Positions 3,335-44,208 of a DNA stretch of 45,498 nucleotides are shown one piece after another. Source of the DNA: a phage; assembly GCA_016693855.1 (NCBI GenBank), contig GCA_016693855.1_4844.1; one strand, given 5' to 3'. The notes beneath the pieces were generated by a model. That model was given only the letters and a program-made list of their open reading frames with translations, searched no databases and was not told where the DNA came from. The position numbers were made by a program, and so were the translations under genes. How positions within the stretch are numbered: the stretch's first letter is position 1; every line of letters begins with the position of its first letter.

Positions 3335-3387
3335 CTTGAATCTACATCACCGCCTCGCAGGTGTCAACACCACTGAGATGATATAAT
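3335..3387 (+). promoter_or_regulatory. promoter region with AATCTACATCA motif, GTCAACACC and extended -10 TGATATAAT
   Basis: Motif at 3339-3349; TGATATAAT at 3379-3387; ~20-30 nt upstream of the tail chaperone start; divergent from the minus-strand morons. Confidence 0.5.
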
Positions 3388-3407
3388 CAACATCAGTCAA
3401 ATTCAGG

Positions 3408-4130
3408 ATGCAAAACATGAGCAATCGCACGCCACTAACAGAAATCGGAGAGATGCGCATCTCGCTTTCCGACAGGAGTTTTTTCTTCAAGCCATCATTC
3501 CGCGCCATGAATGAAATCGGCACACCAAAGGAAATCGTTGAGGTATACGCTAAGCTCAATGGCATTGACTATGTTGCACCATTACAGCACGTAGAATACC
3601 TGCCATTTGGCGCTCAGATGCAGGTTATGAAGACCATCAGCAAGCCTGTGTATGGTCGTCATGTGCTGAGTGCGGCCTATATCGTAATGCAGTCATGCTG
3701 TGAAGATGATATTTCTGTGCTGATTGGTGGCTGGAAGCCAACGCCGCGCGGCGTGCGATATGTGCCAGGCATCATGCCAGTGAGCGACATTATTATTATT
3801 GCGCGCAACCTGATGCAGCACGGCATCATCGGTAAATCACCACTCAAAGTACCTGAGCGTCTGGAAGAGCAGAGCAAGAAAACAACAAACGAGTTTCATG
3901 CGTCGCAATACATTATCTCAGCACGCACGCATTTCGATATGACGCGAGATGAGGCTGAAAACCTGTCCATGACAGAGTTTCAGATGATGATTAAGAATAA
4001 ATATCCAGAGCCGAAAGGGTTAACGAAAGAAGAGCGCGCGGCAGAGTACGATCAGGCTAAAGCAGACCGTGAGCGCATGAAGGCACTGGCTGAACGCAAA
4101 GCGAAAAAGCGAGGAATACATAATGGCTGA
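3408..4130 (+). CDS. tail assembly chaperone (putative)
   Basis: 240 aa ORF immediately upstream of and overlapping the tape measure gene; highly charged K/E/R-rich C-terminus; assignment by conserved position. Confidence 0.5.
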   Translation: MQNMSNRTPLTEIGEMRISLSDRSFFFKPSFRAMNEIGTPKEIVEVYAKLNGIDYVAPLQHVEYLPFGAQMQVMKTISKPVYGRHVLSAAYIVMQSCCEDDISVLIGGWKPTPRGVRYVPGIMPVSDIIIIARNLMQHGIIGKSPLKVPERLEEQSKKTTNEFHASQYIISARTHFDMTRDEAENLSMTEFQMMIKNKYPEPKGLTKEERAAEYDQAKADRERMKALAERKAKKRGIHNG

Positions 4131-31535: not shown

Positions 31536-31775
31536 TCATTTCCACGTTTCACTTTTAAATTGGTATCCGCCAGTGCATTCTCGGCATTGAAATTCAGTCC
31601 TTCCATCGCCATATGGGTCAATCATTCCGGTGCCATTACATTTAGGGCAAATTCGCGCATCACCATCAATAACAGCTTGATGAATCTTTGCCGCGCACTG
31701 GTCAGTAAACACATTGCCATCAGATGTCTTCCAGTGTGTTATAGCAATATTTATTTGCTCAGGAAACATAATCAA
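31536..31775 (-). CDS. small zinc-ribbon protein
   Basis: 79 aa; two CxxC pairs (…CPKCNGTG…CRECTGG…); last gene of a minus-strand operon. Confidence 0.45.
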   Translation of the reverse strand: MIMFPEQINIAITHWKTSDGNVFTDQCAAKIHQAVIDGDARICPKCNGTGMIDPYGDGRTEFQCRECTGGYQFKSETWK

Positions 31776-33051: not shown

Positions 33052-33109
33052 TTGATGTAGATACTATGCACCACCACTCAATCTACGTCAATAGTCATTG
33101 TGATAGAAT
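33052..33109. promoter_or_regulatory. divergent promoter region with inverted motif pair TTGATGTAGATA ... AATCTACGTCAA and extended -10 TGATAGAAT
   Basis: TTGATGTAGATA at 33052-33063 and AATCTACGTCAA at 33080-33091 form an inverted pair; TGATAGAAT at 33101-33109 precedes the lysis operon; on the minus strand TTGACGTAGATT-N-CATAGT could serve the leftward operon. Confidence 0.5.
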
Positions 33110-33135
33110 TAATCATTATTTGAACAGGAGGCAGG

Positions 33136-33414
33136 ATGAAACTATCGCAACGCGGCATGGAGACGCTTGGAATCGCCGATGCAGTGGATATATCGCCTTA
33201 CATCACCACCGAGACAACACAAAATCAGTTTGATGCACTGACAAGCCTCGCCGCCGACATTGGCATTGACACTTTCCGCAAATCAACGCTTCTGAAGAAA
33301 CACAATCTCCGCTGCTTCTCATGTGTCGCCGCGCATTTCATCGTGTGGGGCGAGAAGACTGGCGACAAAGTAAAACGCAAAGCTGAAAAAGAGGTTTACT
33401 GGTATGGCTATTAG
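33136..33414 (+). CDS. lysozyme-like protein with internal deletion of catalytic region (possible remnant)
   Basis: 92 aa; C-terminal half (…TQNQFDALTSLAADIGIDTFRKSTLLKKHNL…FIVWGEKTG…) aligns with the C-terminal lobe of P22 gp19/T4-type lysozymes as I recall them, but ~55 residues including the catalytic Glu/Asp region appear absent. Confidence 0.45.
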   Translation: MKLSQRGMETLGIADAVDISPYITTETTQNQFDALTSLAADIGIDTFRKSTLLKKHNLRCFSCVAAHFIVWGEKTGDKVKRKAEKEVYWYGY

Positions 33415-33868
33415 CAAAAACATGAAGGCGTTTCTGGATATGCTGGCGTACAGTGAAGGCACGGATAACGGGCGACAGAAAACCAATAATCATGGTTATG
33501 ATGTGATTGTTGGCGGCTCGCTGTTTACTGACTATTCCGACCACCCACGCAAGCTGATTAGCCTGCCTAAGCTGGGCATCAAATCCACCGCCGCCGGGCG
33601 CTATCAGGTACTGGCTAAGTTTTATGACGCGTACAAAAAGCAATTGCGTTTACCGGATTTCTCCCCCACATCGCAGGACGCTATTGCAATGCAGCTAATC
33701 CGTGAATGCAAAGCCACTGCCGACATCGAGGCTGGTCGCGTTGCCGATGCCATTCATAAATGCCGTTCACGCTGGGCTTCGTTGCCTGGCGCTGGCTATG
33801 GTCAGCATGAGCAGAAGCTGGATAAGCTGATTCAGGTGTACAATGATGCTGGCGGAGTTGTGGCATGA
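33404..33868 (+). CDS. R: endolysin, lambda R-type lytic transglycosylase
   Basis: 154 aa; near-identical motif blocks to phage lambda R as recalled: …KAFLDMLAYSEGTDNGRQKT.NHGYDVIVGG.LFTDYSDHPRKL… and …WASLPGAGYGQ.E.K…; followed by holin-like and Rz/Rz1 genes. Confidence 0.9.
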   Translation: MAISKNMKAFLDMLAYSEGTDNGRQKTNNHGYDVIVGGSLFTDYSDHPRKLISLPKLGIKSTAAGRYQVLAKFYDAYKKQLRLPDFSPTSQDAIAMQLIRECKATADIEAGRVADAIHKCRSRWASLPGAGYGQHEQKLDKLIQVYNDAGGVVA

Positions 33869-34104
33869 AAAAGCTAAGCAACTGGCTGCTCGCCGCGTGG
33901 ATTTCGTTCTGCTCACTGTTGCAGCTGTGGCCTGATGCAATGATGCATGTGTGGGTAATGATGCCTGATGACCTGAAAGCGGCGCTACCGCCAATCGTGG
34001 TTAAAGGTGTGAGCTACTCAATCATGCTTGTTGGCATCCTCGGCAAAATGCACGGCATGAGGAAGGAAAACCGGAGGCTGCGCGATGATGTCGATTCTCG
34101 CTAA
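33865..34104 (+). CDS. holin-like small membrane protein (putative)
   Basis: 79 aa, two hydrophobic helices (…LSNWLLAAWISFCSLLQLW…, …VSYSIMLVGILG…) and charged C-terminus; ATGA overlap with endolysin stop; located inside the lysis cassette. Confidence 0.4.
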   Translation: MKKLSNWLLAAWISFCSLLQLWPDAMMHVWVMMPDDLKAALPPIVVKGVSYSIMLVGILGKMHGMRKENRRLRDDVDSR

Positions 34105-34576
34105 ATACTGGCGACCGCTGGCAATTATTATAATTGTTGCTGTTGGTGCGCTGTGGGCATCCAATAAAGTGTCCAGTTACGGCGATCAGCAATATGCCGC
34201 TGGATATGCAAAGGCCGTCGCAGAGCAGAAGGCAGCAGACAAAAAAGAGGAGCAACGACGCAATGCAGAACTGCAAAAGATTCAGGCCGAGGCACAGCAA
34301 AGGATTGATGCTGCGCGTAATGATGCTGTCAATGCTGCTGCTAAGTCTGGCAGGCTGCAGCAACAACTCGCAAATATCCGCAAGCAGCTCGTCGGATACT
34401 CCACCACTGAGTCCATTGGCAATCCAGCCGCAGAAACCGGAGTTTTGCTTGCCCAGCTGCTCTCAGAGTCTGTCGAAAGAAATCGACAACTGGCAGATTA
34501 CGCTGACAGGGCAAGGGAGGCGGGATTAGCGTGCGAGGCGCAGTACAATTCTCTGCGTAATAAAAAAGCCCCATAA
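34085..34576 (+). CDS. Rz: i-spanin (Rz-like)
   Basis: 163 aa; N-terminal TM helix, long coiled-coil-like Ala/Gln/Lys/Glu-rich periplasmic region; contains an embedded +1-frame lipoprotein ORF; follows endolysin. Confidence 0.7.
   Translation: MMSILAKYWRPLAIIIIVAVGALWASNKVSSYGDQQYAAGYAKAVAEQKAADKKEEQRRNAELQKIQAEAQQRIDAARNDAVNAAAKSGRLQQQLANIRKQLVGYSTTESIGNPAAETGVLLAQLLSESVERNRQLADYADRAREAGLACEAQYNSLRNKKAP
34308..34529 (+). CDS. Rz1: o-spanin (Rz1-like lipoprotein) embedded in Rz
   Basis: ATG 34308 in alternative frame inside Rz: MLRVMMLSMLLLSLAGC… with lipobox L-A-G-C and Pro-rich mature region (…DTPPLSPLAIQPQKPEFCLP…). Confidence 0.65.
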   Translation: MLRVMMLSMLLLSLAGCSNNSQISASSSSDTPPLSPLAIQPQKPEFCLPSCSQSLSKEIDNWQITLTGQGRRD

Positions 34577-34592
34577 TGGGGCTTGTGTTTAA
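34561..34592. terminator. bidirectional intrinsic terminator
   Basis: aaaaaAGCCCCataatGGGGCTtgtgttt right after the Rz stop. Confidence 0.8.
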
Positions 34593-43398: not shown

Positions 43399-44208
43399 TC
43401 ACATCTTTTCCAGAATTGCCATAACCTCGTGAATATCAGCAACAGGAATCTGGATAAACTCCTCATCCTCTGCCACCACATGACCAGCAGGTAGAATCAC
43501 ATGGTCTGCTGGCTTCAATAACTCGATCAGGCGGTCTACTGGCTTAATCTTTTTCGACTTCAGCACTTTGGCTGTGACCTTGTCCTTGCCTTGTGCTTTG
43601 GCCTCTTCGACTGCCTCGTCGATAACTTTAACCGCATCATCGCCATGTTCACGCGTTACTGCTACGGCATTTGCATAGCTGATTTGTCCTGCACTGATGC
43701 GCGCTTTTACTTCTGCTGGCACATCACCCAGCGACAGGTGCATTTGCACGTCAGATACTGAGCGGCCTACCTTCTTGGCGATTTCTTCATTTGTCCAGCC
43801 AAATCCTTTCAATCGCGTGTAAGCCTTTGCACGCTCAAACGGGTCAAGCTGCTTGCCCTGACTGGATGACACCATGAAGGCGATTTTGTCCGCCTCGTCG
43901 CCAGTGAAATCCTTGCACTCAATGCGAACGATTGGTGCGCCGCGTTCAATGGCTCGTAGTGCACCAAGATAGCGATGCTGACCATCAAGAATGCGGATTC
44001 CTTTGTCGTCAGGGATAACTGTTAATGCTGGCAATGGCTGACCTGATTCCCAGCACTGAGCGAAATATTCAACGTGTTGCTCATCTGCTTCACGGATGTT
44101 ATATCCCGGCTCCAGATAGATTCGCTCCACTGGCACGAGATAGGTTTTGTTAACAGCAATACCGTTGCGCGTTTCTTTGTCTGAATAGATTTTGCTTAGT
44201 GTTTTCAT
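43399..44208 (-). CDS. ParB-like protein (ParB N-terminal nuclease-like domain + HTH)
   Basis: 269 aa; …IRILDGQHRYLGALRA… matches the ParB/Srx-fold arginine-containing box; …FGWTNEEIAKKVGRSVSDVQMHLSL… is HTH-like; no ParA partner in the window. Confidence 0.7.
   Translation of the reverse strand: MKTLSKIYSDKETRNGIAVNKTYLVPVERIYLEPGYNIREADEQHVEYFAQCWESGQPLPALTVIPDDKGIRILDGQHRYLGALRAIERGAPIVRIECKDFTGDEADKIAFMVSSSQGKQLDPFERAKAYTRLKGFGWTNEEIAKKVGRSVSDVQMHLSLGDVPAEVKARISAGQISYANAVAVTREHGDDAVKVIDEAVEEAKAQGKDKVTAKVLKSKKIKPVDRLIELLKPADHVILPAGHVVAEDEEFIQIPVADIHEVMAILEKM

Follow-up and report, generated by a model that had tools for sequence, protein, structure and literature searches.

An apparent pseudoenzyme derived from a GH24 lysozyme is retained beside a second endolysin in the lysis operon of Skatevirus-like phages

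Introduction

Phage endolysins are usually seen as interchangeable cutters of peptidoglycan. The closest conceptual precedent for one that is kept without its catalytic activity is TcdL of Clostridioides difficile. This shortened endolysin homologue has no catalytic activity, is conserved beside the holin TcdE and is presumed to act non-catalytically, in a role that is itself unsettled (10.1101/2025.09.22.677799). Here we describe a 92-codon gene, which we call the stub, at positions 33136-33414 of a 45,498-nucleotide stretch of phage DNA (NCBI GenBank assembly GCA_016693855.1, contig GCA_016693855.1_4844.1); "the window" below means that whole stretch, the genome of a Skatevirus-like siphophage. 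Like TcdL, the stub is a conserved endolysin homologue without catalytic residues in a holin cassette. The likeness is one of analogy: the two proteins share no homology, and TcdL belongs to a bacterial toxin-release locus, comes from another endolysin family and has no catalytic endolysin alongside.

Small non-catalytic polypeptides, encoded separately or made from an internal start, also stand beside a catalytic endolysin of the same cassette in the cases of PlyCB of PlyC and the C-terminal fragments of CD27L and CTP1L (PMC4110038). Those pieces belong to the catalytic enzyme itself, as its wall-binding or oligomerisation domains, and occur in Gram-positive phages, whereas the stub would come from a displaced enzyme in a phage of a Gram-negative host. 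The GH24 fold has been re-used beyond bulk wall lysis in the SpmX muramidase domain of Caulobacterales (6H9D), which is among the structural matches of the stub but is a complete two-lobe domain in a bacterial polarity protein. The SpmX GH24 domain acts in localisation. The C-terminal lobe of the stub has the same fold as in T4/P22-type lysozymes (P22 gp19, 2ANV; AcLys, 6ET6; R21, 3HDE; T4), and its A-helix probably packs onto that lobe as theirs does. In T4 lysozyme (T4L), the C-terminal subdomain comprises residues 75-164 plus the A-helix, residues 1-12, and is discontinuous yet folds autonomously (10.1101/353649). Engineered fragments of that subdomain are laboratory products, whereas the stub is a natural, selected gene product.

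We propose that the stub is a domesticated, catalytically disabled remnant of an ancestral GH24 endolysin, kept for a non-catalytic role, most likely in lysis; we give this statement as a whole a probability of about 0.65. Its parts differ in strength. Origin from a resident GH24 enzyme, loss of catalysis and selection on the protein are highly probable, while a part in the control or execution of lysis is plausible at somewhat less than even odds. Comparative sequence evidence essentially confirms a GH24-derived pseudoenzyme that was retained after non-orthologous endolysin replacement and is widely mis-annotated as an active endolysin. The non-catalytic half appears to have outlived replacement by a lambda R-type enzyme in two clades and by a GH108 enzyme in a third, and its long retention under purifying selection suggests another function for it.

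An internally deleted GH24 lysozyme

The stub keeps the first few residues and the C-terminal lobe of a GH24 lysozyme and has lost the catalytic part, as a preliminary description made from the DNA letters had proposed. Its open reading frame (ORF), on the plus strand, starts with ATG and encodes 92 amino acids (aa) in the sequence quoted there. Residues 19-80 match positions 55-116 of the 125-position Phage_lysozyme profile PF00959 (E 8.1e-11; 42.8 bits, cut-off 22.3), and the N-terminal part of that profile is unmatched. A sequence search of solved structures aligned residues ~16-81 to ~70-126 of P22 lysozyme (2ANV) and, likewise, to the C-terminal parts only of 6ET6, 8APP and 9KBS. The profile phrog_10457 is matched end to end (residues 1-90 to profile 1-95; E 2.9e-41).

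Comparison with a close relative maps the deletion. As comparator we took the GH24 lysozyme, full length at 146 aa, that Escherichia phage EcoIv28_Lewi (Lewi) carries in the orthologous slot. In Lewi and in Klebsiella phage ZCKP8 this slot holds a 145-146 aa GH24 lysozyme that reads MKLSQRGKELIKSFEGLELRAYPDPATGGAPWTAGYGHTG... and is followed directly by holin and spanin; the Lewi holin is 96% identical to the window holin. Window and Lewi DNA are near-identical through promoter, ribosome-binding site (RBS) and the first ~8 codons, after which similarity collapses. Stub residues 1-7 (MKLSQRG) equal Lewi 1-7, and homology is found again from stub ~19, which corresponds to Lewi 69. The 50-residue internal deletion takes away the FEG...PDP...WTAGYGHT catalytic segment with its Glu, Asp and Thr. 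Close to the C terminus the stub lacks a further 5-6 residues (VMNGL). Relative to Lewi, ZCKP8 and P22 lysozyme, then, the catalytic E-x8-D/C-x5..8-T of the N-terminal subdomain is gone. The stub is almost certainly without catalytic machinery and, having no catalytic subdomain, is not expected to be a glycosidase.

Full-length sister GH24 enzymes (Lewi, OX461087; ZCKP8, MZ440881; 37 IMG/VR contigs) share with the stub their promoter, RBS, first 7-8 codons, holin, spanins and an HN-x-x-C-x-x-C motif. They differ in their length (144-149 aa), in having the E-x8-D...T subdomain, YN-G and VMNGL, and in being the only endolysin of their cassette; the stub lacks these features, and a second endolysin follows it. 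The stub gene divides as follows.

33136-33414, plus strand: 92-aa GH24-derived stub, with A-helix and C-terminal subdomain and without catalytic subdomain (Pfam, phrog_10457, PDB alignments, AlphaFold2 (AF2), Foldseek)
33136-33159, plus strand: codons 1-8, MKLSQRGM, remains of the N-terminal A-helix (DNA alignment to Lewi; AF2 helix 5-11)
33160-33189, plus strand: codons 9-18, deletion junction and most variable part of the protein (from the ratio of nonsynonymous to synonymous substitution rates, dN/dS or omega)
33190-33399, plus strand: codons 19-88, GH24 C-terminal lobe, TTQNQFDAL..SL..IG...F.KSTLLKKHN...F..W...R..E (Pfam, PDB sequence alignments, Foldseek, column comparison)
33301-33324, plus strand: H56-N57-x-x-C60-F-x-C63, an instance of the lineage-specific HN-x-x-C-[YFW]-x-C motif

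Other readings of the ORF fail on the DNA itself. A split lysozyme was rejected, as a tblastn search of the window with four GH24 N-lobes gave a best match of only E 0.03, in a ParB-like gene at 43399-44208 (minus strand; a 269-aa ORF, ParB/Spo0J-like by eye; the weak match is one of chance). A frameshift fusion with the downstream R-type gene is excluded by TAA at 33371-33373, which closes the R frame (+1) 10 codons 5' of the R ATG; the open stretch before that ATG holds no slippery heptamer, only a run of five A's. The stub is not a holin either, for it has no hydrophobic stretch and a soluble all-alpha model; the DUF7940 gene at 33865-34104 encodes the holin. It carries no signal peptide or membrane segment.

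Predicted fold

The remaining sequence is predicted with confidence to fold, as A-helix and C-terminal lobe. An AF2 model built on a 43-sequence alignment is all-alpha, with six helices and no strands (pLDDT 91.3, pTM 0.84), and an independent model, from BFVD, of the orthologue in phage KFS-SE2 agrees with it at TM 0.97. Foldseek matches the model to GH24 lysozymes at TMq 0.7-0.8 over 73-78 columns, with a root-mean-square deviation of 1.6-2.3 A; longer alignments (7M5I_B, 6H9D_A) run over 144-151 columns at TMq ~0.8, with a gap of ~55-60 columns. The two-lobe fold, in which a beta-hairpin N-lobe forms one wall of the substrate cleft, is not seen in the stub model. These alignments suggest that the N-terminal helix is placed like the A-helix of the full enzymes, judged at the level of whole alignments. 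Since the retained part corresponds to the autonomously folding C-terminal subdomain of T4L, the deletion would have excised one folding unit and left the other, making the stub a natural counterpart, on the model, of that subdomain.

The fold core is retained and the cleft is not. The motifs QNQFDAL, SL, IG, STLLKKxN, F..W and R..E all persist in the stub. All full-length homologues (100%) have the cleft Asn of YN-G, whereas the window stub has Asp at this position and other stubs have Ser, Ala or Glu. In the G-L-x-x-R-R loop Lys replaces the first of the two paired Arg residues, and the stub has lost the VMNGL loop. Peptidoglycan binding through the half-cleft is doubtful, because the invariant Asn is lost.

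Distribution across three clades

Stub and full-length enzyme are alternative occupants of one slot. We compared gene content upstream of this cassette's holin in 83 loci, which fall into three backbone clades defined by holin and spanin similarity, and found both architectures (stub plus new endolysin; full GH24 alone) in each clade. Clade 1, from Salmonella and E. coli, has the stub with an R-type endolysin in 36 loci and the full GH24 alone in Lewi. Clade 2, Klebsiella-type, has the full GH24 alone in 33 IMG/VR loci and ZCKP8, and a 93-aa stub with R in four loci (RSU-F4K5, L075, L079, L088); the Flyfo siphovirus Tbat1_6 also encodes a clade-2 stub. In clade 3, which is metagenomic, the full GH24 stands alone in four loci, and in L040 and L116 a 98- or 90-aa stub is followed by an endolysin with GH108 and PG_binding_3 domains.

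Wherever the stub occurs, an intact endolysin accompanies it, of R-type in 40 loci and of GH108 type in 2, and the stub is never the sole wall-enzyme gene. Conversely, in Lewi, ZCKP8 and 37 IMG/VR loci the gene directly 5' of the holin encodes a GH24 of 144-149 aa with E-x8-D...T, and, two apparent intermediates aside, full-GH24 genomes among the 83 loci have no second endolysin. Derived characters common to all stub-type sequences are the VMNGL deletion, the motif C-F-x-C and a tail that reads E-(V/I)-Y-(Y/W)-Y-G-Y. Stubs of different clades are 50-64% identical and full-length enzymes of different clades 75-81%; the C-lobes of stubs and full-length enzymes are 47-59% identical. In clade 3 the N-terminus becomes progressively shorter, through proteins of 147, 98 and 90 aa.

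Two loci look like intermediates with two endolysins. In L115 (SRR10682192), protein P0223 has 143 aa, an intact catalytic subdomain and a stub-type C-terminus, and an overlapping R-type gene follows. In L114 (SRR25288731), P0225 is full length (147 aa), with the catalytic Glu replaced by Tyr and the Thr by Arg, and GH108 follows. We also considered whether the many 80-110 aa GH24-like library matches are independent stub families. They are not; most are gene fragments that keep YN-G and VMxGL, and some have artefact-like N-termini; the stub members among them are P0051, P0052 and P0065, possibly also P0091 and P0161. P0065 (L042 120-425, JGI 3300049733) has 101 aa, an A-helix-like start, no catalytic lobe, a TADIGIDKF hallmark and no CxxC. 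Its best PHROG is phrog_10457 (E 1e-19), its 2.8-kb contig shows no recognisable lysis genes downstream of it, and P0065 possibly represents a remoter stub lineage in another context.

Selection on the protein

The stub is under purifying selection on its amino-acid sequence and is not a decaying pseudogene. We sampled clade 1 through 32 IMG/VR contigs, three GenBank phages and the window itself. Each of the 36 loci holds the intact 92-codon ORF, in 33 distinct DNA sequences overall with a synonymous divergence of ~0.28 and no stop codons or frameshifts. Pairwise Nei-Gojobori estimates with bootstrapped confidence intervals (CI) gave a stub dN/dS of 0.118 (CI 0.068-0.183), made up of 0.080 for codons 19-88 and 0.355 for codons 1-18. 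For comparison, the R-type gene gave 0.036, the holin 0.090 and the stub DNA read out of frame 1.5-2.1. Variable sites by codon position number 27, 18 and 71. Stub dN/dS is 0.02-0.16 in clade 2 and ~0.2 in clade 3.

The ORF has persisted through recombination. Pairwise distances among the 33 genomes for the adjacent stub, R and holin genes are uncorrelated or negatively correlated (r = -0.03, -0.21, +0.37), which points to frequent recombination at sub-gene scale; the stub ORF was nevertheless never lost. Apparent "frameshift-tolerant" variants, P0033 and P0029 (92 aa, scrambled middle), were set aside as homopolymer-indel artefacts of an ENA contig. That contig, L039 (ERZ1948697 contig_319), is a 40.8-kb Skatevirus-like sequence with homopolymer indels in which stub, R, holin and spanin all change frame, and the bogus protein clusters P0033 and probably P0029 that derive from it are present in a public protein collection.

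One motif sets this lineage apart. HN-x-x-C-[YFW]-x-C is invariant in the 33 unique clade-1 stubs and in those of clades 2 and 3, as well as in every one of the 27 unique full-length GH24s of this cassette type, and it is absent from the ~136 other GH24-size proteins compared. It is the best candidate site for a role of the C-lobe beyond catalysis.

The lysis operon

The stub is the first gene of a short plus-strand unit whose flanking genes lie on the minus strand. Over its 1.7-kb lysis region the window shares ~90% DNA identity with, among others, Shigella phage DS8, Salmonella phages SeSz-2 and Skate and BASEL phages Bas77-79, and 165 phage records match this region. Its features, beyond the stub, are these.

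33078-33109, plus strand: promoter-like block, the segment TCAATCTACGTCAATAG (with imperfect direct repeat) plus an extended -10 (read from sequence)
33101-33102 and 33104-33109, plus strand: TG and TAGAAT of the extended -10, TG-a-TAGAAT (sequence)
33126-33131, plus strand: Shine-Dalgarno AGGAGG of the stub gene, 4 nt 5' of its ATG (sequence; conserved in Lewi)
33391-33394, plus strand: GAGG RBS of the R-type endolysin, within the 3' end of the stub gene (sequence; an equivalent RBS is annotated in Skate)
33404-33868, plus strand: intact lambda R-type lytic transglycosylase, 154 aa (phrog_90; E 8e-61 to 1AM7/3D3D; dN/dS 0.036)
33865-34104, plus strand: holin, 79 aa, DUF7940, two hydrophobic segments (Pfam PF25612, phrog_13249; class II holin in the Skate annotation)
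34085-34576, plus strand: i-spanin, 163 aa, DUF2514 / Rz-like (profile matches; Skate annotation)
34263-34529, plus strand: embedded o-spanin, 88 aa, lipobox LLSLAGC, +1 frame of the i-spanin (ORF list; position transferred from the Skate annotation)
34566-34584, either strand: bidirectional terminator-like hairpin closing the operon (hairpin scan; terminator at the same place in the Skate annotation)

The block at 33078-33109 is the putative promoter of the operon. It is almost unchanged in four phages of two clades whose flanks are otherwise unlike, and L040 too has a TGgTAGAAT motif 5' of its clade-3 stub; from this conservation we infer promoter function. A consensus sigma-70 scan, which needs a -35, made no promoter call for the block, because no -35 is present. 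A wider intergenic arrangement of GTAGAT-type repeats, TCAATCTACGTCAATAG and TGnTAGAAT is common across clades (window 33060-33135; L006 1700-1796; L004 1920-2000; L040 2900-3000) and could be a late promoter with an operator. In LPST10 (L002, 1602-2081) an HNH homing endonuclease sits between the upstream gene and the lysis promoter.

The R-type gene has what a working endolysin would need. Lambda R homology extends over residues 3-153 (E 8e-61 to 3D3D/1AM7), and the catalytic Glu lies in AYSEGTDNG; we propose that this enzyme cleaves the peptidoglycan. The stub stop (33414) overlaps its start (33404) by 11 nt, in agreement with the preliminary description, which had noted an overlap with an intact lambda-R-type endolysin. 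That description also placed the stub where a holin usually sits, which does not hold: in this group the first slot natively houses a GH24 endolysin, whereas the holin gene comes third. Its idea of a remnant of endolysin replacement agrees with the full-length GH24 standing alone in relatives' slots and with the constant pairing of stub and second endolysin. As for its alternative of a repurposed non-catalytic protein, catalytic loss and retention under purifying selection bear it out, and the lost family-invariant cleft Asn tells against the peptidoglycan-binding version.

The overlap of stub stop and endolysin start recurs in all three clades; it measures 11 nt in the window and 14 nt in both RSU-F4K5 and L115, and takes the form ATGA in L040, L116 and L114. 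We tried and rejected an RNA hairpin that masks the R start and forces coupling, as there is no significant structure around the RBS (z 0.64). A tight holin-specific partnership was likewise set aside, weakened by closely similar clade-3 stubs beside divergent holins and by the lack of co-variation. Those 86-aa holins (L116 3787-4047, L040 3811-4071) are 36% identical, in cassettes whose stub C-lobes are 85% and spanins 80% identical and whose GH108 genes differ by a pN of 0.03; this looks like a holin swap within an otherwise conserved cassette.

Earlier annotation

The stub family has been annotated throughout as "endolysin", "lysozyme" or "endolysin/glycosidase" (GenBank, PHROG phrog_10457, Pharokka). 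The Skate announcement gives the transglycosylase alone as endolysin and leaves the stub out of its lysis cassette (PMC6606912), and that of LPST10 states that the phage "has two different endolysins" (PMC5578832). One of these, ORF60 or LysWL60, is 91% identical to the stub; LysWL60 and phrog_10457 are the same protein family as the stub and differ from it in being described or annotated as endolysin. To our knowledge, the loss of the catalytic subdomain in LysWL60 or phrog_10457 has not been noted before. In all, more than 130 GenBank phage records, one PHROG family and food-safety reviews label the stub protein "endolysin", and one group has tried LysWL60 as an antibacterial.

The stub is also present throughout a set of genome-reduced derivatives of one phage, the Skatevirus seszw. 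It is found in all 70 seszw records (69 mutants), including a 35,993-bp mutant with neighbouring genes deleted; genes judged essential by homology, among which the stub may have been counted, were untargeted (PMC9825161). The ~69 derivatives are deposited as separate "complete genomes" (MZ3752xx-MZ3753xx, OL9647xx), and seszw records make up 70 of the 135 stub records, so that hit counts are inflated for any Skatevirus query.

Proposed origin and role

The observations fit a history of replacement followed by reduction. The ancestral cassette would have run promoter, GH24 lysozyme, holin, spanins. A second, unrelated endolysin, lambda R-type here and GH108 in another clade, would then have been inserted between lysozyme and holin. 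With GH24 catalysis redundant, an in-frame deletion of 50 codons could remove the N-terminal catalytic subdomain and leave exactly the part that folds by itself, the A-helix and C-terminal subdomain. The resulting 92-aa protein would have stayed the first and most strongly initiated gene of the operon, under purifying selection at the amino-acid level, while the R-type enzyme cuts the peptidoglycan. Judged by its sequence features, the stub is translated from the operon's best initiation site.

The stub would act non-catalytically, through contact with protein or cell envelope, with HN-x-x-C-x-x-C as candidate site. Because it is the first gene of the lysis operon, its function most likely lies in lysis. 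Genomes with a full GH24 need no stub, so the retained function is probably also provided by the C-lobe of the full enzyme. Tentatively, and with the odds against it, we suggest that the C-lobe has a second, non-catalytic function, for instance as a redox- or metal-sensitive switch on HN-x-x-C-x-x-C that affects lysis timing or envelope disruption via holin, spanin or cell-wall contact. If so, this function could not be replaced by the incoming endolysin, hence the survival of the C-lobe on its own, as a separate protein of 92 aa. Translating the stub would incidentally bring ribosomes to the overlapping endolysin start; with omega at ~0.1 and no RNA structure, coupling is at most a plausible side benefit.

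Several points weigh against a catalytically disabled lysis factor. The main evidence against a catalytically dead protein is the work on LysWL60, available through secondary sources. Reviews relate that Liu et al. 2019 expressed both LPST10 proteins, the R-type LysWL59 and the stub orthologue LysWL60, and that both, LysWL60 included, were lytic on chloroform-treated Gram-negative cells (PMC10588457). A tabulated summary lists LysWL60 at 348 µg/mL and 40 °C and LysWL59 at 4.5 µg/mL and 80 °C (Table S1, PMC9396760); according to the reviews, LysWL59 was picked for further work and LysWL60 dropped. On those figures the LysWL60 dose is ~77-fold higher by mass, as would also be expected from a non-enzymatic or contaminant effect. 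In the ungapped alignment to Lewi, moreover, position 15 of the stub, often acidic, coincides with the catalytic Glu15, and it is Asn in some orthologues.

The remaining points concern fold, selection, partners and history. Because full-length homologues were part of the AF2 alignment, the model depends in some measure on the family fold. Pairwise dN/dS values lack phylogenetic independence, which makes their intervals rough, though the signal is still large. Distance (mirror-tree) correlations of the stub with R (-0.03) and holin (-0.21) carry no co-evolution signal, because, as we read them, recombination erased it, and two clade-3 stubs that are 85% identical adjoin holins only 36% identical. 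Each apparent intermediate is a single ~1.1-kb metagenome contig, and P0223 (L115) is possibly a recombinant or assembly chimera.

If the proposal is right, Gram-negative phage lysis cassettes hold a class of component outside the holin, endolysin and spanin scheme: an endolysin-derived pseudoenzyme would serve as a lysis factor, and the sister full-length endolysins would be bifunctional. The three clades offer natural allelic pairs (stub plus new endolysin; full GH24) in otherwise near-identical cassettes and thus a testable system. Members such as the BASEL Skatevirus isolates Bas77-79 can be grown on E. coli K-12 in which the O16 O-antigen has been restored, which makes the system tractable in the laboratory.

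Alternative explanations

Recruitment to a task outside lysis survives best among the alternatives, and we consider it unlikely. The stub might, for example, interfere with co-infecting relatives that rely on GH24, counter a host factor, or act non-enzymatically on membranes through basic amphipathic C-terminal helices. Its protein-level constraint without an identified cassette partner, including the missing co-variation with R or holin, fits such a role, as does the coexistence of stub and full-length alleles in all three clades, as though balancing or frequency-dependent selection maintained them. Lys and Arg abound in the C-terminal half, and the weak optical-density effect of high-dose LysWL60, as relayed by secondary sources, is consistent with non-enzymatic action. 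Against this stand the stub's place under the putative lysis promoter, its expression with the lysis operon, the lack of a signal peptide or membrane segment, and a cassette that already has a complete holin-endolysin-spanin set.

Slightly less likely still is a leader ORF, whose frame would be kept so that ribosomes loaded at AGGAGG initiate the overlapping R-type or GH108 gene, the peptide itself being functionless. The stop/start overlap in all three clades, the endolysin RBS inside the stub 3' end and the strong, promoter-proximal Shine-Dalgarno of the stub are all as this would predict. A leader, however, needs an open frame and not conserved amino acids, yet the C-lobe omega of 0.08 equals that of the holin, third-position changes are abundant, and fold core, CxxC and YxYGY tail are kept across clades that are only 50-64% identical. 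The endolysin moreover has its own, unsequestered RBS, and 92 codons are far beyond what coupling needs.

That the stub is a small genuine muramidase, giving the phage two active wall-degrading enzymes, we regard as improbable. It is how GenBank, PHROG and Pharokka label the protein and how the LPST10 announcement counts it, and the reported activity of LysWL60 on chloroform-treated cells would agree. GenBank adds for Skate (MH321493, L001, coding sequence 1937-2215) the note "has Ex5Dx8T motif; endolysin_glycosidase". We rejected this E9/D15/T24 pattern, which we take to be a chance one, as a catalytic triad: canonical GH24 spacing, as in P22 lysozyme and the Lewi family, is E-x8-D and then x5-x8-T, so the order of spacings is reversed, each of the three residues varies among orthologues, and no acidic residue is invariant across clades within the first 28 stub positions. 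The N-terminal subdomain, the Glu/Asp/Thr triad and one cleft wall are missing, the invariant cleft Asn is lost, and the stub never occurs without a real endolysin. The LysWL60 effect, seen at a dose ~77-fold above that of LysWL59 and then dropped according to the secondary accounts, was possibly non-enzymatic or due to a contaminant.

A neutral relic, a pseudogene fragment not yet eroded, would explain a deletion in a gene made redundant by the new endolysin, a faster-evolving N-terminal part (omega 0.36) and the shrinking clade-3 N-terminus, but is very improbable given open frames throughout the 33 sequences at that synonymous divergence, an omega of ~0.1 in two clades and ~0.2 in the third, one architecture kept between clades 50-64% identical, and "frameshifted" variants known solely from an error-ridden contig.

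Other observations

Elsewhere in the window, a 79-aa ORF at 31536-31775 (minus strand) has two CxxC pairs (CPKCNGTG...CRECTGG) and resembles a small zinc-ribbon protein; "Lar-like restriction alleviation protein" genes, possibly orthologous to this ORF, appear in the annotation of a related phage with the same type of genome. Within the operon, about ten relatives (L022-L024, L026, L031, L033-L035, L037) carry an extra 130-190 bp between holin and spanin, which moves the spanin start from 3221 to 3352-3408.

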